IMG/VR virus record: IMGVR_UViG_2855946969_000005
Span: 35,286-99,285 of that record
Source: a virus
Taxonomy: Duplodnaviria; Caudoviricetes
DNA: 64,000 nucleotides
Direction: 5' to 3' (one strand)
Shown: in pieces, positions 17,728 through 63,742 of the stretch
Numbering within the stretch: position 1 is the first letter of the stretch
Layout: every line of letters starts with the position of its first letter
Notes under the pieces: model-generated
Database searches by the model: none
Told to the model about the DNA's origin: nothing
Seen by the model: only the letters and a program-made list of their open reading frames with translations
Translations under genes and position numbers: made by a program

Positions 17728-17904
17728 GGGTTCGGTGCTCTCGGAATCGATGGATCTGCGCGCGCTCGCGCCGCTCCTCCGCCTCGACCCACGCCAGGGC
17801 ATCACGCACCGGGGATCGAGAGGCGGCGAGACGAAGGTCGCCTTCCGAGAGCCGGAGGTCAGGCTCTCGGGCATCGGCGTCGGCGAGGACGCGGTCGGTG
17901 GAGG

Positions 17905-18564
17905 TCATGCCGTGAGCAGGCCCACGTCCCGGAGGAAGGCCGCCACGTCGAACAACTCGGGAGCGAGTTCCATGACGAAGGCGCGCTTCGTCGGGGCGTC
18001 CATGCCCAGCACGTCGCCGTAGCTGAAGCCGTAGGACATCAGGAACAGCGTGAGGCGAACCTCGGGCGGCGTCGGGCCCGCGGCGGGCGCACGGAGCGGT
18101 GCGGGCTCGGCCGGCGCTTGCCCCCAGGGGCTCGTGCGCGCGGCGGCCGCGTCCCGCTTCGGGCAGACGATGCCCTTGCACCACCCCGGTGCGTCGTACC
18201 CGCAGCGCCGGCAGGCGGTGCCCGCGGTCGGCTTCGGCTCGGGCGCCGGCTCGCGCCGCGGCACGCGCGGCTCGGCCATCGTGCCGAGGATCGACATGGA
18301 CGTCATGTTCCGCCGCTGCACCATGATCGGTTCGCGGAAGACCGGGATGTCGTCGGGCCGGCCGCGCATCAGCAGCGCCTCGTCCGCCTCGGTCGGCGCG
18401 ACCAGCACATGCGTGGAGGCCATCGCATCGACGCCGTGCATCGACGTGCGCAGGTCCCGCACGAGACAGGCATCCGCCTTGTCCATCACGAAGACGACCA
18501 CGCTGGTGCGCGGCAGGGACGCGACGAAGGCCGCCGTTTCGGCGACGCGATGCGGCTCAATCAT
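17905..18564 (-). CDS. Hypothetical protein with CxxC...C...C cluster
   Basis: CRRCGYDAPGWCKGIVCP. Confidence 0.45.
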   Translation of the reverse strand: MIEPHRVAETAAFVASLPRTSVVVFVMDKADACLVRDLRTSMHGVDAMASTHVLVAPTEADEALLMRGRPDDIPVFREPIMVQRRNMTSMSILGTMAEPRVPRREPAPEPKPTAGTACRRCGYDAPGWCKGIVCPKRDAAAARTSPWGQAPAEPAPLRAPAAGPTPPEVRLTLFLMSYGFSYGDVLGMDAPTKRAFVMELAPELFDVAAFLRDVGLLTA

Positions 18565-18695
18565 GTTGGAGGTCCGGTCAGGGTTAGGGCGAGCCGCACA
18601 GGCGGTCGCGGGCCGGGCGCGGGATGCGTCGGGCCGGGCGCGCGGCGGGAGCCGGCGCAGTCAGAGCTTCAGGGGATCACAGGATCCGGTGAGCT

Positions 18696-18832
18696 GTAGG
18701 GGTCGAAGGCGGGCCGGGCTCGACACCGGCTCAGAGTATTCGGCTTTACAGGTTCGCCATGTCTCTGCCGCCCACTGAGTAGGCCCTGCCTTGGCTGGCG
18801 CGTCCTTCCGCGCCGCCGCCTTCGACCGCTAC
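18696..18832 (-). ncRNA. tRNA-shaped structured RNA, copy B
   Basis: Perfect 12-bp terminal stem GGTCGAAGGCGG/CCGCCTTCGACC; D-like arm GCGCG-GAAGGA-CGCGC; T-like arm GCCGG-TGTCGAGC-CCGGC stacked on the 3' strand; about 67 nt replaces the anticodon/variable arms; no encoded CCA. Confidence 0.65.
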
Positions 18833-18835
18833 CGC

Positions 18836-19096
18836 CTATGCCGCGAGCGCGAGGCCGCGGAGTGGTTCGAACTCCATCACCGGGAGAACGATGGTGGCCA
18901 CCTCCCCGCGCGGCGGCGGGTTCTTCTGTATAGCGTCGAGCGCCGCCTTGATCGACGCGATCTCGCCGGGGCCCGTGCCGACTCTGTAGAGGGTCGGACC
19001 GGTCCAGACCTGAGGCCGGATCACCGGAAGCCCGACAGCCGCCGCGCCCGCGGTTGCGAACACGCTTCCGAGGAAGGATCGGCGGCTCAGGCGCAT
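18836..19096 (-). CDS. Small Tat-signal protein
   Basis: MRLSRRSFLGSVFATAGAAAVG twin-arginine motif; GGAG RBS. Confidence 0.6.
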   Translation of the reverse strand: MRLSRRSFLGSVFATAGAAAVGLPVIRPQVWTGPTLYRVGTGPGEIASIKAALDAIQKNPPPRGEVATIVLPVMEFEPLRGLALAA

Positions 19097-19118
19097 CGGG
19101 CTCGTCTCCACATGGCCA

Positions 19119-19290
19119 GAGCAGCAGGGGGCGAAGGCGGACCGGGCCTGCAAGGAACCCGGCAATTCGGTCCGCACCTTTCTCGACAGATCTCGGCGCA
19201 TCCTACGGCCTGCAGATTGGGCGCAGGTCTATGCACGCCCTCAGGGCCGAAGCCCTTTCACCGTGTCGCCGCCTTCGACCACTACTGCTC
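19119..19290 (-). ncRNA. tRNA-shaped structured RNA, copy A (expanded)
   Basis: Long terminal stem GAGCAGTAGTGGTCGAAGGCGG/CCGCCTTCGCCCCCTGCTGCTC; UUCG hairpin inside the D-like loop; T-like arm GCCGGG...CCCGGT; 5' end homologous to copy B. Confidence 0.6.
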
Positions 19291-19296
19291 AGGGGC

Positions 19297-19326
19297 GAAC
19301 GTTACCAGAACGTCCGATCTCCGCAA
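19297..19326 (-). promoter_or_regulatory. sigma70 promoter overlapped by a LexA (SOS) box
   Basis: TTGCGG-16-TAACGT with extended TG; perfect GAAC-N7-GAAC at 19297-19311 covering the -10. Confidence 0.65.
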
Positions 19327-19399
19327 GCCGTAGCGCCCACGCATACAGCCCCGCACGAAAGGCGATCGGCGGTAGCGCGGGCATGACGGGATCCTTGGA

Positions 19400-19480
19400 T
19401 CAGGTGAGCGCTAGGACGCCCAGCAGCAGTGCGGCGCCCGCCGCGATCGGCAGGCAGATGGCCAGGGCGTCGGCGCGCAT
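19400..19480 (-). CDS. 26-aa hydrophobic peptide
   Basis: MRADALAICLPIAAGAALLLGVLALT after GAGG; single TM helix. Confidence 0.45.
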   Translation of the reverse strand: MRADALAICLPIAAGAALLLGVLALT

Positions 19481-19487
19481 CAGAGCC

Positions 19488-20354
19488 TCAGAGGATCGGG
19501 GCGTGCGTGCCGTCTTGCAGGACGTGCGTCGTCGCGCCGTTCCACTGGAACAGGTATTCGAGCGCGCCGCGGTACTTCTGATTGTCCACGATGTAGGAGA
19601 TGCCGGACGGATGCCAGATGCCGCCGTTCGGTGCCGGGATCCCCTCCCCGTTCAACTCTGCGCAGATCGAGCGAAGTGTGCGCTTCTCGCGCTTCACCGC
19701 CTTGTAGATCCGCTTCACGACTTTAGCCTGCTCGGGCACGACGACCAACTGGCGTTGGCCTTTGTCGCCGCCCTCGACCCGGTAGCCGTAGGGCGCCCTC
19801 CCCCCGGCGAAGCCGCCGCGGCCGGCCTTGTTCATCCGGCCGCCGGCTGTGCGATCCCGGATCGTGTAGCGCTCGTTCTCCGCCATGCCGGCGAAGATCG
19901 CGAAGAAGGTTCGGCCCATTGGGCTCGACGTGTCGATCACTGACTCGGTCACGGACCGGAACGCCACCTCGTGCTGCTCGGCCAGATCCGAGACCGTCGT
20001 GATCGCGTAGCGGATGTCGCGCGCCAGACGGTCGATCTTGTAGACGAGCAGGATCGAGAATGCCCGCGCCTCTGCCAACTCCATCACCCGGGCGAAGCCG
20101 GGGCGATCCGCCGGGCGTGTCGCACCGGAGAACCCGGGGTCGGTGATCGCCTCGACCACCTCGTAGCCCTGGCTCTCAGCGAAGGCGTGAACCGCGCGCT
20201 GCTGCGTCTCGAGGCCGGTGCCGCTGTTGGCCTGCTCATCGGTCGAAACGCGGAAGTAGGCGACGACCTTGGTGCGCTCGGCCGCCTTCTGGCTAGCTCG
20301 GACTTCCGTCCTAGCCTTGATCCGGGCTACCCGTTTGCTGCCAAAAGCGCCCAA
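19488..20354 (-). CDS. Serine recombinase (resolvase plus recombinase domain, no Zn ribbon)
   Basis: YFRVSTDEQ, DPGFSGA...RPG, VYKIDRLAR, ERYTIRDRT..GR, GGRAPYGY. Confidence 0.9.
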   Translation of the reverse strand: MGAFGSKRVARIKARTEVRASQKAAERTKVVAYFRVSTDEQANSGTGLETQQRAVHAFAESQGYEVVEAITDPGFSGATRPADRPGFARVMELAEARAFSILLVYKIDRLARDIRYAITTVSDLAEQHEVAFRSVTESVIDTSSPMGRTFFAIFAGMAENERYTIRDRTAGGRMNKAGRGGFAGGRAPYGYRVEGGDKGQRQLVVVPEQAKVVKRIYKAVKREKRTLRSICAELNGEGIPAPNGGIWHPSGISYIVDNQKYRGALEYLFQWNGATTHVLQDGTHAPIL

Positions 20355-20516
20355 AACGCTAACCCTACCAGAGCGTTAAGACCCCTAGGAAGCCGCTTTG
20401 TCCAAACTCTCACAAGAATTCGAACACGGCGATGCTTCGGGGTAGGGACGGCTGGTTAACAGATGGTTTACGCTGCGTCTCTGGCCGCGCTTGCGGGCCG
20501 CCCTGGGAGCCAATCG

Positions 20517-22031: not shown

Positions 22032-22063
22032 TTGATATCAGCCCAGGAGAACGTACTATGAAC
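22032..22063 (+). promoter_or_regulatory. tnpB promoter with LexA box; leaderless transcript
   Basis: TTGATA-16-TACTAT; perfect GAAC-N7-GAAC at 22049-22063; GTG start 6 nt after the -10. Confidence 0.7.
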
Positions 22064-32000: not shown

Positions 32001-33290
32001 CTAGAACGTGCCCGCCTCCAAATCGGCCTCCAAGGTTGATAGCGGCGCCCCGAGCCAGACCTTCTGCATGATCGGGACGCCCTTGCCGTAGCGGCCGATA
32101 TGCGCCCACTCGCCGAACTGCGCCTTCCCGAACTCGCCGTGTTTGAGGATGGCCTTCTTGCGCAGCACGTCGAAGGTATAGCCCGCCCCATTCACGTTCA
32201 TGCGGCGTATCAAACCGTTCAGGCGCTCGACGTAGCCGCTGGTGAAGCGGTGCTCGAAGTAGCGGAGGATGTGCGGGCGCCAGAGCTTGAAGGCGTCGAT
32301 GCTCGGCTTGAACGGCCGCTCGAACTCGGGCGGCACGCTGGCGAGCCACTGGTTCGTAGCATGCTCGGCGGCAGCGCGGCTCTCGGCCTCGTAGATGTCG
32401 TAGAACCGCTCCTTCAGATCGTAAGCGGTCGCCAGCACCGGGTAGAGGCCGAAGAGCCTGCTGAGGGTGGTTTGCGTCTCGGGCTTGCAGGTGTCCCATC
32501 GCGCGAGGAAGACTGCGCGGCGGCGCTTCAAGGCGATCCGGTCCTTGTTGGACAGGTCGCGGTAGAGAGCCTTGCGGACCACCTCCATACCGTAGTTCGC
32601 CGTCCGCTGGACGTGGTACTTGTCCACCACCGTGACGGCTTTAGGGAAGACAGCCTGCGTCAGCTTCCGGTAGCCGGACCACATGTCCTGACAGACGATC
32701 TCGACCTCTTCACGGCCCGCCATCATATGGAAGTAGTCGCGCAGATCGACCTCTCGCCGGGAGGGCTGCATGTCGATCATCAGTCCCCGCTCCACGTCAC
32801 CGATGACGAAGCGGGCCCGGCGATGCAGGTAGATCTCATCCATGCCGAGGACGCGCGGCAGCTTCGGGATGTACCCCTTCAGCATGCGGTCGCTGTAGTC
32901 ATCAAACAGACGGCGGATCAGCGTCTCGTGGACGCCGTTGACCTTTGCGGCGGTTGTGAACGAGTGCTCTACGGCCTGCCGCTCAAGGTGCTTCTTGAAC
33001 CGCAGCGTGATCCGCCGCTCGGTGTCGATGTCCGGTAGCTCCTCGTAGCTGATCTTGTGGCACTTATTGCAGCGGTAGCGCTGCCGGGAGACCTCAAGCC
33101 AGACAGGCTGGCCTTGGATGGCGTGGTCCCTGAAGCGAACGGCCTTCGTGCCGTTCTTGCTCTTGTCGTTCCAGAGGCAGCACCCAAACGGCAGCAGGGG
33201 CTTCTTGCTCGCCGCTCGCACGATGAGGAACCCACCCTCCTCATACGTGTCTACTGCCGCCAGATTGGGAAGGCGCAACAGGTCCGTCAC
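32001..33290 (-). CDS. ISL3 family transposase
   Basis: RQRYRC..C, LGMDE, VCQDM, VDKYHV, TSGYVERLN..IR. Confidence 0.93.
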   Translation of the reverse strand: MTDLLRLPNLAAVDTYEEGGFLIVRAASKKPLLPFGCCLWNDKSKNGTKAVRFRDHAIQGQPVWLEVSRQRYRCNKCHKISYEELPDIDTERRITLRFKKHLERQAVEHSFTTAAKVNGVHETLIRRLFDDYSDRMLKGYIPKLPRVLGMDEIYLHRRARFVIGDVERGLMIDMQPSRREVDLRDYFHMMAGREEVEIVCQDMWSGYRKLTQAVFPKAVTVVDKYHVQRTANYGMEVVRKALYRDLSNKDRIALKRRRAVFLARWDTCKPETQTTLSRLFGLYPVLATAYDLKERFYDIYEAESRAAAEHATNQWLASVPPEFERPFKPSIDAFKLWRPHILRYFEHRFTSGYVERLNGLIRRMNVNGAGYTFDVLRKKAILKHGEFGKAQFGEWAHIGRYGKGVPIMQKVWLGAPLSTLEADLEAGTF

Positions 33291-34833: not shown

Positions 34834-35756
34834 AAGATCCGGGACACGCCCGTCACCACCGCGGCGCTGTAGGTGCCGACGCAGTGGCGCATCGCGGCGC
34901 CCTCCGCCCAGAGATCCTCGCAGGATCGGAGCGGCACGAAGTCGAAGCCCTCGACGACCACGGGCGCGTTTGTGAAGGGCGCGTAGTCCATCGCCTCGGA
35001 GAACTTCACCCCGAGCCCGTGGGCGGCCCGCTGTTCGGCGGCGGCGCGCCCGAGTGCCCGGTGCCAGCGCTCGGCGGCCGCCTCGGCCTGGGCGAGCGTC
35101 CAGCGGGTGTCGAAGACAGCGCCCGGCACGCCTGCCACCTGCCCGAGACGGTTGCCGCGGAAGCCGGGGACGTTGACGGTGCCGGAGGCCGCCATCGCGA
35201 GGTCGGCGATGGTCTCAAGCACCCCTTCGTGCCCGCGCCGCACCTCGCGCGCCGCGCGCGCCACCCAGTCGAACTGGAACCACGCGTTCCCGCACCGGTA
35301 CTCGCAGTGCTCCGACCAGACGGTGAGCGCCCGCAGCCACGTGTCCTGCTGCGTGCGCGCTGCCGGGATGATCTGCGCCAGCGTCGAGGGCGGCAGCCGG
35401 CCGAGATGGAAGACCACCGGCCAGCGCTTTGGGTGCAGCACGCTCGGCGCCAAGGCGCGCAACTGGAACGCGCACCCGTAGAAGCTCATCACCTCGCGTA
35501 GCTTCGCCCCGCGCTCGCAGAGCATCCGCATGGGCGGGCCGGCGTAGGCGCGCGCTCGGGCGGCAGCCGTCCGCCCCGTCTGCCCGGCATTCGCCGAGAG
35601 CACGATCACGGGCGCCTGCCGGATGTAGTCGAGGGCGCGCTCGTGGCAGCCCGCCATCGCGGCTGCGGGCCGGTGCAGGGCCTGATTCCCGAACAAGGCT
35701 TTCGCCTCCCGCTGGGCGTCGCCGCGGGACCAGGGGGCAGAAGCGGTCTCGCTCAA
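34834..35756 (-). pseudogene. PcfJ-like domain protein, N-terminal part (interrupted by ISL3)
   Basis: PLRS..DL..EG..MRHCVGTY. Confidence 0.8.
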
Positions 35757-45509: not shown

Positions 45510-46151
45510 GGGCGTCTTCTCCTCCACCGAGAGCGGCACGTCCTTGGCGGACCGGGGAAAGGCTTCCTGTCGCGGGGTGGGCGCCGTACCTCTCGATGCA
45601 TGGTGGCGAGCGAGAGCAGCGGGCGCGGCGGCGCGGACGAGCAGGGCAAGGCCCGTGGGATGAAGGGGCGTGCCCCGGCCCGCCTGCGGAACGCCCAGTT
45701 CCAACGCGGCGAGACAGGACACGCCCGCACCGTGCCCGCCACGCCCAAGGCAAGCGCTCAGGCGGACGCGGTGACCGCCGGGAAGGCGGATCGGGGAGAG
45801 GGTTGCCGGGCTTTCTCGGCCCACGCCCGGCATGCGGGTTCCGCTCAGGGAGGCCGGGTCATTCCGGCTTTGGCCCTGGTCGAGGTCGTGCGCCGCGAGG
45901 GGCGCGTCTTGGTGCTCAGGGGAATCCCAAAGGGCGGGCGGAGCATTGAGGCCCCGCCCGAAGTCTCGGGAGAGAACGCCCTGGCGGGCAACGTCGACGC
46001 CGGCAACGGCATCGTTCTGGTGCAGGGCCGGCGTCATGCCGCCCTCGCTGTCGCTACGCCGGAAGAGACCCGGCGATGATCCTGATGGCGAACGGGCGCG
46101 CGGCGGGACCGCGCTACGCTCAGGGCTCCGTTGCGGGAGCCCAGCCGAGCC

Positions 46152-46484: not shown

Positions 46485-46713
46485 TTGCCGCCGCCGGACG
46501 CTTGTGGGCGATCTTCTCGTCCCGCAGGCCGTACAGCAAATCGAACGTGATGCTGTTTGCTTGGCCTTCGGCGGAGTCGACGATGCGCTTGAAGTAGTCC
46601 GGCGGAATGCTGTCACGCGCCTTCAGCACGCGCACATGGCTCTCGGGGATCCCGAGGATCCCGGAGGCGCCCGGAACACCGAGCGCATCGATGACATCGG
46701 AGAACGAGTTCAT
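46387..46713 (-). CDS. Cro-like HTH repressor (leaderless)
   Basis: MNSFSDVIDALG.......LGI....VRV.K.RDSIPP.YF; divergent from cI. Confidence 0.75.
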   Translation of the reverse strand: MNSFSDVIDALGVPGASGILGIPESHVRVLKARDSIPPDYFKRIVDSAEGQANSITFDLLYGLRDEKIAHKRPAAATIRPAFASEVPRSVASRKRAGLRPAALAGQSR

Positions 46714-46720
46714 GGAGCTA

Positions 46721-46786
46721 TCGCTACATGAGGTAGCGAGCGTGGTCAACACGGCACGAAGCGATTGGCCCGCTACACTGCGTAGC
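46721..46786. promoter_or_regulatory. OR-like region: two GCTAC-N5-GTAGC operators with divergent promoters
   Basis: Palindromes at 46723-46737 and 46772-46786; minus strand TTGACC-17-TAGCGA; plus strand -10 TACACT 7 nt before the cI ATG. Confidence 0.8.
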
Positions 46787-47467
46787 ATGGATGACACCAA
46801 GCTACGCAAGGCGCAGGGCGCGCGGTTGAAAAGCGCGCGCGTGGCCGCCGGCTATCGCTCCGCGCGCGAGGCGGCCCTATCGAACGAGTGGTCCGAGAGC
46901 ACCTATCGGGCCCACGAGGGCGGCACCCGTACCATCGGCCAAGACGATGCTGAGCGGTACGCGAACCGATTTCGGTTCGATGGCGTCCAGGTCTCGGCGC
47001 GCGGCATCCTATTCGGCGACGAGGATGCGGGCGAACCCGTCCGCGAGGGTGGCAACATCGTAGGCGTGGCGGGACTGATCAGCGCAGGCGGCCTCATCGA
47101 CACAGGGTCAGAGCAGATCCCGGACGACACGAACCTCTACGAGATCGAGGTGCCCTTCCCCGTGCCTGAGGGCACGATCGCCTTCCGCGTCGAAGGGCCG
47201 TCCATGCATCCACGCTACGACCCTGAGGACGTGATCCTCTGCTCAAAGCATGGCGAGAACCCGGAGAACCTGGTGGGCGCCTACGCCGCCGTCCGCACGA
47301 TCGACGGCCAGCGCTACCTCAAGCGTCTCCTCCGCGGCAGTCGGCGCGGGCTCTACCACTTGGAGAGCCACAACGCCCCGCTGATCTCCGACGTCCGCCT
47401 GAAGTGGTCCTCCGGCATCATCGCCACGGTTCACGGCCAACACTGGAAACGCTTAGTCCAGGGATGA
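46787..47467 (+). CDS. CI-like repressor (HTH plus S24 peptidase)
   Basis: RLKSARVAAG...TY..HE.G; ISAG cleavage site; VEGPSMHP; YLKRL. Confidence 0.92.
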   Translation: MDDTKLRKAQGARLKSARVAAGYRSAREAALSNEWSESTYRAHEGGTRTIGQDDAERYANRFRFDGVQVSARGILFGDEDAGEPVREGGNIVGVAGLISAGGLIDTGSEQIPDDTNLYEIEVPFPVPEGTIAFRVEGPSMHPRYDPEDVILCSKHGENPENLVGAYAAVRTIDGQRYLKRLLRGSRRGLYHLESHNAPLISDVRLKWSSGIIATVHGQHWKRLVQG

Positions 47468-61505: not shown

Positions 61506-62735
61506 ATGAACCAGCACGTCCCCGTGGAAGGCGCCGACGCGCACTCCAACCAGATCGCGGCGGCCCATGCCCGGCTGCTCGGCGGCAAGCTGCAGGATCT
61601 CGCGGCCGGGTTCTACCCGCCTACCGCGGAAAAGACCCTGCGGCGATTCTCGGCCGGCGAGACGGCGCGCCTGCTCGGCATCACCGAGGTGCGGCTGCGG
61701 CAGCTCCCCTTCGACCGGCTGACCCCTGATCTCGAGATCGGGCCGGCCGGGCGCCGCTACTTCACCCTCGCCGAGATCCACGCGGTCCGCCGCCATCTCC
61801 ACGAGATCGACCGGGTGGGGCGGGGCTACCTCCCCCACCGCGACGCGGACAAGGGCGAGCACCTGCAGGTCATCGCGCTCACGAACTTCAAGGGCGGCTC
61901 GGCCAAGACCACGCACACGGCCGGGCTCGCCCACTACCTCGCGCTTCATGGCTACCGAGTGCTGGCGATCGACGCCGACCCACAGGCCTCGCTCTCGACC
62001 CTACTCGGTGTCCGGCCCGACGACAGCGGCCCGACCATCTACGACGCGGTGCGCTACGGCGAGGGCCAGCGCCCGATGCGGGAGGTGATCCGGCCGACCT
62101 ACTTCGCCGGGCTCGACCTCGCCTCGGCGAACCTCGAGCTTGAGGAGTTCGAGTTCTACGCGCCTCTGATGTCGAGCCCGGACCGGCGCCGGTCGGCGGG
62201 GGCGCCCTTCTTCGCCCGGCTCCCCGTGGCGATCGAGAGCGTCGCGGCCGACTACGACGTGGTGGTGATCGATTGCCCGCCGCGGCTGGGCTACTTCGCC
62301 ATCTCGGCCCTCTGCGCGGCCACCGCCACCCTGATCACCGTCCACCCGCAGATGATCGACCTCGCGTCGATGCGGCAGTTCCTCACGATGATGAGCGACC
62401 TGATGGAGACGGTGCAGGAGGAGGGCGCCCCGCCGCCGGCCCAGGACTGGTTCCGCTACCTCGTCACCCGCTACGACCCGCAGAGCGTGCCGCAGACCTC
62501 GGTGGTCGGCATGCTGCAGGATCTGTTCGGCAGCTACGTCCTCCCGAGGGCGATGCTGCAGACCCCGGCCGTCTCGACCTCGGGCTTGGTCGGGCAGACG
62601 ATCTACGAGACCCCGCTCGGCAAGGACCGCAGCGACGAGGTGAGCCGAGCCACGTACCGCCGCGCGCTCGACGCCTTGGACGATGTGAACCGTGAGATCG
62701 AGACCCTGATCCGCCGTGCCTGGGGTCGGGCATGA
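61506..62735 (+). CDS. repA: Plasmid partition ATPase RepA
   Basis: EKTLRRF, NFKGGSAKTT, IDADPQAS, DCPP, TVHPQM.D, LIRRAWGR. Confidence 0.95.
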   Translation: MNQHVPVEGADAHSNQIAAAHARLLGGKLQDLAAGFYPPTAEKTLRRFSAGETARLLGITEVRLRQLPFDRLTPDLEIGPAGRRYFTLAEIHAVRRHLHEIDRVGRGYLPHRDADKGEHLQVIALTNFKGGSAKTTHTAGLAHYLALHGYRVLAIDADPQASLSTLLGVRPDDSGPTIYDAVRYGEGQRPMREVIRPTYFAGLDLASANLELEEFEFYAPLMSSPDRRRSAGAPFFARLPVAIESVAADYDVVVIDCPPRLGYFAISALCAATATLITVHPQMIDLASMRQFLTMMSDLMETVQEEGAPPPAQDWFRYLVTRYDPQSVPQTSVVGMLQDLFGSYVLPRAMLQTPAVSTSGLVGQTIYETPLGKDRSDEVSRATYRRALDALDDVNREIETLIRRAWGRA

Positions 62736-63742
62736 GCAAGAGCATTCGGGATCTGATGTCCCGCCGCGTGGCTGAGCCCGCAACGGACAGCCCGCCCTCA
62801 ACGGGATCAACGACTTCACCCCCCTTACCAGGTGGTAATTCGCCCTCCCCTCGCCGCACCGGTGCAGCCCGCTCGTTCGGCGCCGCGTGGCAGGCGCAGG
62901 AACAGGCTCGGGCCGTAGCCGACGCCGAGCGCGACGGCAGCGTGGTCGAGCTCGATCCGGAGATCTGCGATCCTTCAGCTATCGCGGACCGGGTGCCCGA
63001 CACCACGGACGCCGCCTTCGACGCTTTCGTGGAGCAGATCCGGGAGGAGGGCCAGCGCAGTCCGGCCCTGGTGCGGCCGAAACCCGGCGAGCCCGGGCGC
63101 TACGAAATCGCCTATGGGCGTCGGCGGCGCCGGGCCGCGCAGATCCTCGGCCGGCCGCTGCGCGCCATCGTGCGCCCGCTCAGCGACACGGAGCTCGTTA
63201 TCGCGCAGGGATCGGAGAACCTCGCCCGCGCCGACCTCAGCTACATCGAGCGCGCGCACTTCGCGCGGAACATGGTCCAGGCCGGCGTGGCGCGCGAGAC
63301 GATCGCGAAGGCAATGGGCACGCAGGCGACCCACCTCTCCAGCTTGCTCACGGTCGCCGACGCGATCCCCGCCCCCGTGCTCGCCACCATCGGCCCGGCA
63401 CCGAAGATCGGCCGGCCGAACTGGCTCACGCTCGCCGACCGGATCAAGACCGCGAGCCCAGAGCAGATCGACACCGCCATCGCCTCCCCCGACCTCGCCG
63501 GCAAAGCATCGGACGAGCGGTTCGCCGTGGTGTTGGCCGCGCTCACCGTGGTGCCGAAGCCAAAGGCGAAGCCGAGAGCCGAGACGCTGAAGGACCCCAA
63601 GGGCCGGAAGTACGCGCGCGTCGAGCGCAGCGCGACCGGCCTCCGCGTGACGGTTGAGGAGGCTGCCGAGCCCGGCTTCGGCGACTACCTCGCCCAGCGC
63701 ATCCCCGAGATCCTGGCCGCCTACCGGGCGAGCAAGGGCTAA
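62732..63742 (+). CDS. repB: Plasmid partition protein RepB (ParB family)
   Basis: GQ..P.LVRP, YEIAYGRRR, AQG.EN.AR.DLSYIERA.FA, IGPAPKIGRP.W. Confidence 0.95.
   Translation: MSKSIRDLMSRRVAEPATDSPPSTGSTTSPPLPGGNSPSPRRTGAARSFGAAWQAQEQARAVADAERDGSVVELDPEICDPSAIADRVPDTTDAAFDAFVEQIREEGQRSPALVRPKPGEPGRYEIAYGRRRRRAAQILGRPLRAIVRPLSDTELVIAQGSENLARADLSYIERAHFARNMVQAGVARETIAKAMGTQATHLSSLLTVADAIPAPVLATIGPAPKIGRPNWLTLADRIKTASPEQIDTAIASPDLAGKASDERFAVVLAALTVVPKPKAKPRAETLKDPKGRKYARVERSATGLRVTVEEAAEPGFGDYLAQRIPEILAAYRASKG

Follow-up and report, generated by a model that had tools for sequence, protein, structure and literature searches.

What are the two small elements that stand on either side of a short reading frame in the genome of a tailed phage? 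The locus lies in a window of 64,000 nucleotides (the whole stretch of DNA analysed here, positions 35,286 to 99,285 of the IMG/VR record IMGVR_UViG_2855946969_000005; Duplodnaviria, Caudoviricetes). Both elements, termed copy A and copy B, are read on its minus strand and bracket a small gene with a twin-arginine (Tat) signal. An initial annotation, made from the sequence alone, had proposed a tandem pair of homologous tRNA-shaped RNAs behind an SOS-box promoter. Our analysis leads to a different view of their kinship: copies A and B are very probably separate genes for small structured RNAs, each belonging to a family of its own. Both RNA families are real, conserved and strand-specific, and many of their members are carried by phages. 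Taken together with a proposal on shape and action, namely that the RNAs resemble tRNA and work in trans, this forms the best explanation that we can offer for the locus, and we consider it moderately probable as a whole.

The A-type RNA family

The A family was reached from copy A itself. A recombinase match led to the probable host genus, and a DNA search of that genus located 72 nt of the copy A interior in two genomes, where the identity is 92%. Five sequences yielded a consensus fold of 41 pairs and, from it, the covariance model R2, which finds one copy each in 18 of 146 host-genus genomes. In a sample drawn at the level of the family, the A type is present in two of 141 genomes, one of which has two copies. 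In viral sequences, a pattern of the conserved core retrieves 42 IMG/VR contigs, 33 of which are confirmed by the model R3 at 66–97 bits.

Two alignments carry the structural argument. In alignment A4 (19 rows), 98.2% of the cells are paired against 78.6% after shuffling, and none of 500 shuffles reaches the observed value. With the pseudoknot included, the figure for A4 is 98.4%, against 35–46% for slid partners. In alignment A5, which has 30 distinct rows, 95.3% of the cells are paired, against 71.5% when shuffled and 37–50% when slid. Nineteen pairs change on both sides in A4 and 19 of 30 do so in A5, counts to be read with the knowledge that the alignments were fitted to the model and that the A5 pattern fixes the core, so that the free evidence comes from P1, P3 and the pseudoknot only. 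Paired cells thus lie far above the shuffled and the slid controls, which bears out a fold for which covariation in homologs had been named as the check. The folded strand can be told as well: G-U cells outnumber A-C cells by 101:2 and 111:13, and this excess identifies the modelled strand as the one that folds.

The pseudoknot is contained in no model. It joins five bases of the first-arm loop to five bases of the last-arm loop and takes six forms among 49 distinct sequences (CUGCC/GGCAG, CUCCC/GGGAG, CUGCA/UGCAG, CUGCU/AGCAG, CAGCA/UGCUG and CUCCA/UGGAG), all of them complementary at five of five positions. The pair found in copy A is CUGCA/UGCAG.

The A-type fold is a four-way junction with its arms in cloverleaf order, within an RNA of about 100–170 nt. 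A closing helix of at least 9 bp (about 9–11 in the family) is followed by a 4-nt linker and by the conserved first arm, ACGGU/GCCGU, whose loop may hold extra hairpins. The third arm is variable in length and loop, and a linker of 5–6 nt then leads to the last arm, GCGGGG/CCCCGC, which abuts the closing helix and stacks on it. Copy A shows the features by which the type is recognised: a match to the model, the ACGGU/GCCGU arm, a last arm of the GCGGGG type and a complementary pseudoknot. Its first-arm loop holds two extra hairpins, one of which is the cUUCGg hairpin that had been placed in a D-like loop; in the family frame this insertion is found where it had been seen.

Most A types read as free-standing small RNA genes, since they appear to have their own promoter in front and a terminator or tail behind. 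Judged by eye, most of them have a −35/−10 pair in which the −10 (often TATACT) stands 7–10 nt ahead of the closing helix; downstream of the helix comes either a pyrimidine-rich tail or a terminator hairpin. Their surroundings differ from genome to genome. Eight of the 18 host-genus loci have the RNA 39–97 nt (236 nt in L102) behind genes labelled hisZ and hisG from a reading of their N-terminal sequences. In two others it stands against tRNA-Thr, just upstream of it; in L087 and L088 the model match ends 1 nt before tRNA-Thr. In one further locus it is flanked by an odd tRNA-like gene and tRNA-Met, with a ParB-type protein next to it, and other host-genus loci have prophage-like surroundings. 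In L091 the A type lies between a scaffold-like gene and a Phage_capsid_2 gene. A single family-level genome has both its copies between tRNA-Tyr and tRNA-Thr (L122, L123). Lastly, 17 of the 33 viral copies occupy the gap between the Mu F and the Mu G or I genes, on the opposite strand. An early suggestion that the RNAs belong to a late leader, as cis-acting antiterminators, fits poorly with this distribution, because most A types look free-standing and these 17 copies run antisense to the late genes that flank them.

The odd tRNA-like gene mentioned above (L090, 1619–1720, minus strand) is 102 nt long. ARAGORN reports it as 'tRNA-???' with a four-base anticodon and the Rfam tRNA model gives it 47.1 bits; in its anticodon loop, 30 nt replace the six central positions. 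It immediately precedes the A-type RNA and tRNA-Met in a prophage-like region.

The B-type RNA family and the arms common to both elements

A 21-mer of the 3′ module of copy B retrieves 19 IMG/VR contigs, and in 17 of these a script finds hairpin H1 together with a closing helix of 6–12 contiguous pairs. The 17 contigs, copy B of the window and a host copy make up a set of 19 rows, with 15 distinct closing-helix sequences, six covarying H1 stems and middles of 64–171 nt. The B-type build comprises a closing helix that ends in GCGG/CCGC, H1 with a GA(A/U)GGA loop, a variable middle, the invariant 3′ hairpin H2 and an N-C-C tail. In copy B, the closing helix pairs at 12 of 12 positions, the H1 stem is GCGCG/CGCGC, H2 is exact and the tail is of the CCU type. 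Read by eye, N-C-C stands behind the closing helix in at least 11 of 18 B sequences and ACCA in two; in the A family, terminators or tails rich in pyrimidines stand in its place. Several B types have promoter-like sites in front, again by eye.

B types are found beside tRNA genes in hosts and in phages. Two host-genus genomes (G882 and G876) have the order A′–tRNA-Thr–B′. In G882 (locus L077), B′ is a 213-nt element about 80 nt behind tRNA-Thr; in G876 (L078), an inserted stretch with an extra small element lies between the two. Host B′ has the 5′ hairpin of copy B with a compensatory change and exactly the same 18-nt 3′ hairpin, and differs in the closing helix and the middle. In a 92-kb viral contig (L181, 148–3160), 17 tRNA genes are packed into 3 kb, and a B type sits inside this array, in the gap between tRNA-Arg(CCU) and tRNA-Glu(UUC) and on the same strand. 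Another lies directly behind tRNA-Thr and tRNA-Trp (L184), and a third immediately upstream of an A type (L137). A and B types occur together in the window, in L137, and in G882 and G876 with their IMG/VR twins. Relatives of both types stand inside or against tRNA genes, a point in favour of the initial reading.

Two further observations concern the host loci. In L077, some 250 nt of non-coding sequence (1700–1990) behind a CTTGAC-type promoter precede A′–tRNA-Thr–B′; they may be a further structured RNA, and Rfam gives no match for this stretch. The extra small element of L078 (about 1660–1760, minus of the locus) has the closing arms of the neighbouring B′ (TTCGATGACG / CCGTCATCGAA) around an unrelated 65-nt interior. 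It belongs to an inserted stretch with GAATTCGA..TGACG repeats on its flanks; the sister locus L077 lacks this element.

The claim that A and B are homologous tandem copies did not stand, as they are alike in their arms only. The A-family model R3 gives 88.8 bits to copy A, which was included in the training sets of both R2 and R3, and 12.4 bits to copy B, nearly all from the arms that B has in common with A; copy B is accordingly no A-type member. A covariance model of A and B together (R1) retrieved only the two copies themselves. The interiors have no similarity to each other in either orientation, a comparison which also rules out copy A as an inverted version of copy B. Folded alone, the interiors do no better than their shuffles (z −1.49, −0.63, −1.42 and +0.23); z is −3.8 for the whole of copy B and −0.94 for the whole of copy A.

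The common arms are about 23 nt long. With at most one mismatch, the 12-mer GGTCGAAGGCGG occurs nine times in the window against a shuffle mean of 1.49 (none of 100 shuffles reaches nine), and the four arms account for four of these matches. The arms alternate in orientation and form inverted pairs of 20–25 nt at 84–91%, the best of which joins the 5′ arm of A to the 3′ arm of B (91%). The 99-kb record holds no copies beyond A and B. Exact-arm pattern scans of three collections returned chance matches only, those in viral and genome contigs lying in coding regions, and a flank word gave one chance match in metagenome contigs. In other genomes with both RNAs, the A and B types do not share arms; the window alone has this feature. 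The shared 23-nt arms are probably a local peculiarity of this phage, produced by recombination between the two genes.

Close relatives, in the form of contigs from four public runs, were compared over 17800–20500. X2 is identical to the window at 19335–20500 and X4 in parts, and both carry other sequence in place of 18695–19334; in the leader 18562–18694 of X2 and X4 there are 7 differences in 133 nt. X9 joins 19332, after 21 other letters, to a single element with B-like arms whose interior, about 108 nt by arithmetic, cannot be aligned to copy B. X8 has the Tat-signal open reading frame (ORF) directly behind 19293, without copy A. No strand-changing joint was found in these contigs over the compared stretch.

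A 17-mer in the recombinase gene (19763–19779, minus strand) agrees at 16 of 17 positions with the interior-side start of a copy A arm (GGTCGAGGGCGGCGACA and GGTCGAAGGCGGCGACA). It encodes part of the stretch PYGYRVEGGD and may be due to chance or be a relic.

The locus, its promoter and its replicon

On the minus strand, the order is serine recombinase, two tiny ORF-like stretches, GTTC-N7-GTTC, copy A, Tat-signal ORF, copy B, leader and next gene (Table 1). The 5′ end of copy A, GTAGTGGTCGAAGGCGGCGACACGG, is at 19284 and that of copy B, GTAGCGGTCGAAGGCGGCGGCGCGG, at 18831, and both elements close on CCGCCTTCG; the shared ends quoted in the initial annotation were all found on this strand. 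A GC3 frame plot marks copies A and B as non-coding and the ORF between them as coding. This ORF matches TIGR01409 (twin-arginine signal), so that the Tat-signal mini-gene said to be bracketed by the two RNAs is confirmed. The gap from copy A to the ORF is 30 nt; copy B starts 3 nt past the stop codon and is followed by 130 nt before the next gene. The ORF has no relatives in the protein collection, and a search for proteins of similar length returned only the ORF itself. That it is a fragment of a longer protein was rejected on the weak evidence that no longer relative was found.

Table 1. Coordinates of the features of the locus (window positions)
Feature	Position	Strand	Remarks
Copy A, including extended closing stem	19116..19293	minus	25-nt inverted repeat, 84% complementary
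Copy A, A-family covariance-model match	19126..19279	minus	167.8 bits (R2), 88.8 bits (R3); copy A in both training sets
Copy A, P1 closing helix, 5′ strand	19269..19280	minus	Partner 19129-19140
Copy A, P2 5′ strand ACGGU	19260..19264	minus	Partner GCCGU 19205-19209; invariant in A family
Copy A, pseudoknot 5′ half CUGCA	19211..19215	minus	Complement UGCAG 19148-19152, in P4 loop
Copy A, P4 hairpin GCCGGG...CCCGGU	19141..19163	minus	Abuts P1 3′ strand
Copy B	18693..18835	minus	20-nt inverted repeat, 90% complementary
Copy B, hairpin H1 GGCGCG-GAAGGA-CGCGCC	18797..18814	minus	Stem covaries in B family
Copy B, hairpin H2 GCCGG-UGUCGAGC-CCGGC	18713..18730	minus	Abuts P1 3′ strand (18701-18712); N-C-C-U type tail behind
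Tat-signal ORF, 86 aa	18836..19096	minus	Between copies A and B
LexA-type box GTTC-N7-GTTC (GAAC-N7-GAAC on plus)	19297..19311	minus	Motif match
Leader, copy B to next gene, 130 nt	18562..18694	minus	Kept in relatives without the A-ORF-B module
Serine recombinase, 288 aa, Resolvase and Recombinase domains	19488..20354	minus	Upstream of copy A

In front of copy A, inspection by eye finds CTTGCG (19327..19322), 17 nt and a weak −10, TAACGT (19304..19299). This promoter-like site is in the same place as in the A family, and the LexA-type motif spans its spacer and its −10, a suggestive position. A promoter directly ahead of the RNA had been asserted for copy A, and A-family members do appear, by eye, to have one. 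A simple promoter scan returned no sigma-70 site by its rule. As to the SOS part of the claim, a perfect motif does cover a weak −10, but it is a single motif and is not enriched. In the window, GAAC-N7-GAAC occurs three times against 1.46 expected, and since 19 of 100 shuffles have at least three, the motif is present without being statistically notable. Other A-family members have consensus-like −10 sites without a LexA-type box. LexA control of the copy A promoter in this phage is a possibility to which we give the smaller share of our belief.

Two more sequence features may be recorded here. A second perfect GAAC-N7-GAAC lies at 22049–22063 on the plus strand, about 2.7 kb upstream of copies A and B. 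The leader behind copy B contains CGCGCCCGGCCCG twice and a GGATC..GATCC palindrome on the minus strand, and could be a promoter or a regulator site for the genes that follow.

The 99-kb record carries virion and packaging genes (terminase, PhageMetallopep, DNA methylase) as well as DnaB, ThyX, an ISL3 transposase and an S24 repressor-like gene. Partition genes for RepA (ParA-type) and RepB are located at 61506–63742 on the plus strand, and the best RepA matches are to Methylobacterium and Methylorubrum plasmids at 61–62% identity. From the virion genes, the repA/repB pair and the RepA matches, we infer that the record would be a temperate phage-plasmid of a Methylobacterium-type host. The recombinase gene upstream of copy A is not truncated, as 288 aa is the normal length of its family: in 25 IMG/VR loci the relatives align to the end of the query, the stop coming one codon later in 21 of them and 4–26 codons later in the other four.

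Two neighbouring proteins, of 219 and 302 aa, have no relatives in viral contigs, and none of the terminase relatives carried the element. A BLAST search of the region or of copy A against phages and plasmids gave nothing relevant, and a class-level DNA search for a presumed host stretch was blank in 401 genomes.

Elsewhere in the window, an sRNA of the mmgR/suhB family (RF00519) at 45921–45996 on the minus strand, with 46.6 bits, is the only Rfam match at threshold. It lies about 600 nt from the S24 peptidase repressor-like gene (46607–47467). The ISL3-family transposase gene (32001–33290, minus strand; DDE_Tnp_ISL3, HTH and zinc ribbon) is inserted among phage genes.

Likeness to tRNA, rival explanations and meaning

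Are these RNAs tRNAs, relatives of tRNAs or something else? ARAGORN reports no tRNA or tmRNA in the window, the tRNA model RF00005 gives no match at E up to 10 over 18400–19700, and the Rfam tRNA, tmRNA and Y-RNA models match neither element. A canonical or an intron-containing tRNA is ruled out by the blank results of ARAGORN and RF00005. At the related loci, the ARAGORN and Rfam tRNA matches are true tRNAs only. Neither copy is matched at threshold in Rfam 15, and no Rfam family matches the A-type loci that were tested. The ARAGORN and Rfam runs that the initial annotation had recommended hence returned no tRNA and no known family at threshold. Its description of the elements as non-decoding, non-coding and structured agrees with these results and with the covarying folds.

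The comparison with canonical tRNA has two sides. In the A type, a closing helix is formed from the two ends, four arms follow in cloverleaf order, a last arm of T type abuts and stacks on the helix, and the first and last loops are in contact; this is the tRNA layout. Some A and B members occupy slots in tRNA operons or arrays, and the B type appears, by eye, to have an N-C-C tail. In contrast to tRNA, the closing helix has 9–22 bp instead of 7, a variable third arm takes the place of an arm with a 7-nt anticodon loop, the T-like loops have 8–12 nt, and the loop contact of the A type is a 5-bp Watson-Crick pseudoknot. The tRNA geometry proposed for the pair holds for copy A, whose cloverleaf-like frame is backed by covariation; in copy B, conservation is confined to the closing helix and the two outer hairpins.

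A and B may be stable tRNA-shaped RNAs that act in trans as tRNA mimics; this is our best guess at their mode of action, although we regard it as rather doubtful. The transcripts would begin and end at the closing helix, which would protect both ends. The closing helix and the stacked last arm would present a shape like the acceptor and T arm of tRNA, and the 5-bp pseudoknot would join the first-arm and last-arm loops, a counterpart of the contact between the D and T loops of tRNA. Maturation of the ends would fall to the tRNA end-processing enzymes; where A and B types abut tRNAs, the ends would have to be set by these enzymes. The strongly conserved junction and loop contact suggest recognition by a common partner, and the RNAs could act by tying up a factor, of the host or of the phage, by which tRNA-like shapes are recognised. 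More doubtful still is a fuller version, in which the two types are undescribed classes of non-decoding tRNA-shaped RNAs, free-standing or in tRNA arrays. There, the encoded N-C-C end of B could be completed by the CCA-adding enzyme, the mimics would engage machinery that recognises tRNA, such as translation factors, processing enzymes or tRNA-directed defences (anticodon nucleases among them), and copy A would be switched on with the SOS response.

Several observations weigh against these proposals, in addition to the blank tRNA searches, the model-fitted alignments, the core-fixing pattern, the training sets that include copy A and the unremarkable count of LexA-type motifs. As far as can be read, no anticodon-like loop is conserved and the T-like loops depart from the T-loop consensus. 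A tRNA is nearby in only three of 18 host loci and three of 36 loci of a second set. The antisense position of 17 of the 33 viral copies between Mu F and G also suits an antisense or a structural role. The promoters, the terminators and the N-C-C tail were identified by eye. The stretch with the LexA-type box is kept in X8 and replaced in X2 and X9. Finally, none of the public runs listed as containing the stretch is recorded as RNA.

A different kind of explanation starts from the arms. At the level of DNA they could be the ends of a mobile or recombining cassette, MITE-like, attC-like or made of serine-recombinase sites and possibly invertible, with the interiors as cargo. The alternating orientation of four related arms, the 91% pairing of A 5′ with B 3′, the serine recombinase gene directly upstream and the extra L078 element, with B′ arms around an unrelated interior, speak for such a cassette, and the near-identical relatives X2, X4, X9 and X8 differ exactly at the module. 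We nevertheless judge this improbable, in view of the covariation, the preference for G-U over A-C and the covarying pseudoknot, all of which indicate a single-stranded fold on one strand, and of the promoters and terminators that family members appear, by eye, to have. Inverted repeats are present as in a MITE, but no target-site duplication is seen by eye and there are just the two copies in the 99-kb record. The attC cores RYYYAAC/GTTRRRY are absent from the arms, and the recombinase next to them belongs to the serine type (no search for IntI was made in the rest of the record). Moreover, 25 other loci with the same recombinase family have no such element downstream, the exact-arm scans produced chance matches only, and in other genomes A and B do without common arms. 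Similarly improbable is a role in cutting, either as self-cleaving ribozymes or as RNase III or RNase P processing signals that divide a polycistronic transcript around the ORF. Closing stems of 17–22 bp in the window would suffice for RNase III, some members adjoin the 5′ ends of tRNAs, at which RNase P cleaves, and the scattered, phage-rich and orientation-independent contexts recall those of known small ribozymes. However, no Rfam ribozyme family matches, and the long stems are particular to this phage, the closing helix of the family having about 9–11 bp. With the apparent promoters and terminators of their own, most members have no need of a role in processing a longer RNA.

In a cis-acting reading, A would control the Tat-signal ORF as a riboswitch or attenuator, and B would serve the genes downstream as an aptamer like c-di-GMP-II-GCG (RF03170). 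The spacing of each copy before its next gene would allow it, and conserved cores with variable outer helices are aptamer-like. Copy B does have the closing helix, the GGC/GCC pair set and the 3′ GAGCC.GUG.CGAGCCCG beside the helix in common with RF03170. Its score is 26.7 bits (E 0.041 in a 1.3-kb search), far under the threshold of 47.9, and the match consists of the closing helix and the 3′ module, with 31 central model positions skipped. Copy A has no match to RF03170, nor have eight other B-family loci at E up to 5 or host B′ at E up to 10. None of 151 alphaproteobacterial genomes matches at E up to 0.001; the same search in 14 control genomes matched Deinococcus radiodurans alone, over the cut-off, and at E up to 10 there are matches in eight of these 14. 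Membership of copy B in RF03170 is therefore rejected, given the sub-threshold score, the skipped centre, the permissive matches in controls, the blank alphaproteobacteria and the unmatched B relatives and host B′. Since A types, for their part, precede terminators, convergent genes or tRNAs or run antisense to their neighbours, we consider cis-acting leaders very improbable. We would put slightly lower yet the possibility that the A type has a structural or assembly role in the virion pathway, comparable to phi29 prohead RNA or to the self-assembling ROOL and GOLLD, with loops pairing between molecules. The head-morphogenesis setting of the Mu-like copies and the scaffold-like/capsid gap of L091 would suit such a role, and the perfect 5-bp complementarity of the loops through six variants is a covariation that fits pairing in cis or in trans. 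Yet eight host copies have a fixed chromosomal place behind hisZ–hisG and a terminator of their own, the RNA of the Mu-like phages is opposite in strand to the head genes, and copy A lies outside the head cluster of the window.

The preferred reading of A and B as two families of structured RNA genes can be set beside known systems. The c-di-GMP-II-GCG motif is reportedly described in the supplement of Weinberg et al. 2017. The main-text passages of PMC5737381 do not contain this name. A limited literature search found no description of the A or B RNAs. As neither is in Rfam 15 either, both families are apparently undescribed. Among the closest known systems, besides canonical tRNA, are the small stable RNAs of phage tRNA clusters, such as RNAs C and D of T4. 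Bacterial Y RNAs (YrlA) are non-decoding, have a tRNA-like module and a long stem formed from the two ends, and some of them occur in phages; they differ in that A and B have no Rfam match to them and, as far as the models tell, unrelated conserved nucleotides. No Ro60/Rsr gene was noticed beside A or B, although none was searched for. GOLLD and ROOL are several hundred nucleotides long, whereas A and B measure 100–230 nt and have no Rfam match to either. Passages of PMC12990946 present GOLLD and ROOL as structured phage and bacterial RNAs of unknown function, often located in tRNA arrays. The shared arms of the window bring another comparison, in that they flank a small ORFan gene in a region which varies between close relatives. 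PeSL of T4-type phages and MITE-like elements are repeated intergenic cassettes of this kind. In the case of A and B, however, the repeats are the closing helices of covarying RNA genes, and the shared arms are not seen in other genomes with both RNAs. tRNAs, the stable RNAs of phage tRNA clusters, Y RNAs and GOLLD/ROOL are analogues of A and B, not relatives.

The list of phage RNAs whose function is unknown is short; if A and B are indeed undescribed, it would gain two well-supported structured RNAs. The A type is frequent among the clustered head genes of Mu-like phages and the B type is embedded in phage tRNA arrays. The alignments and models provide material for probing, pull-downs and deletions, and the variable module of the close relatives supplies natural 'knock-outs'. 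Together, the tRNA-like build and the neighbourhood of these RNAs make it a testable question whether phages use tRNA mimics against tRNA-targeting defences or to tune the processing of tRNA.

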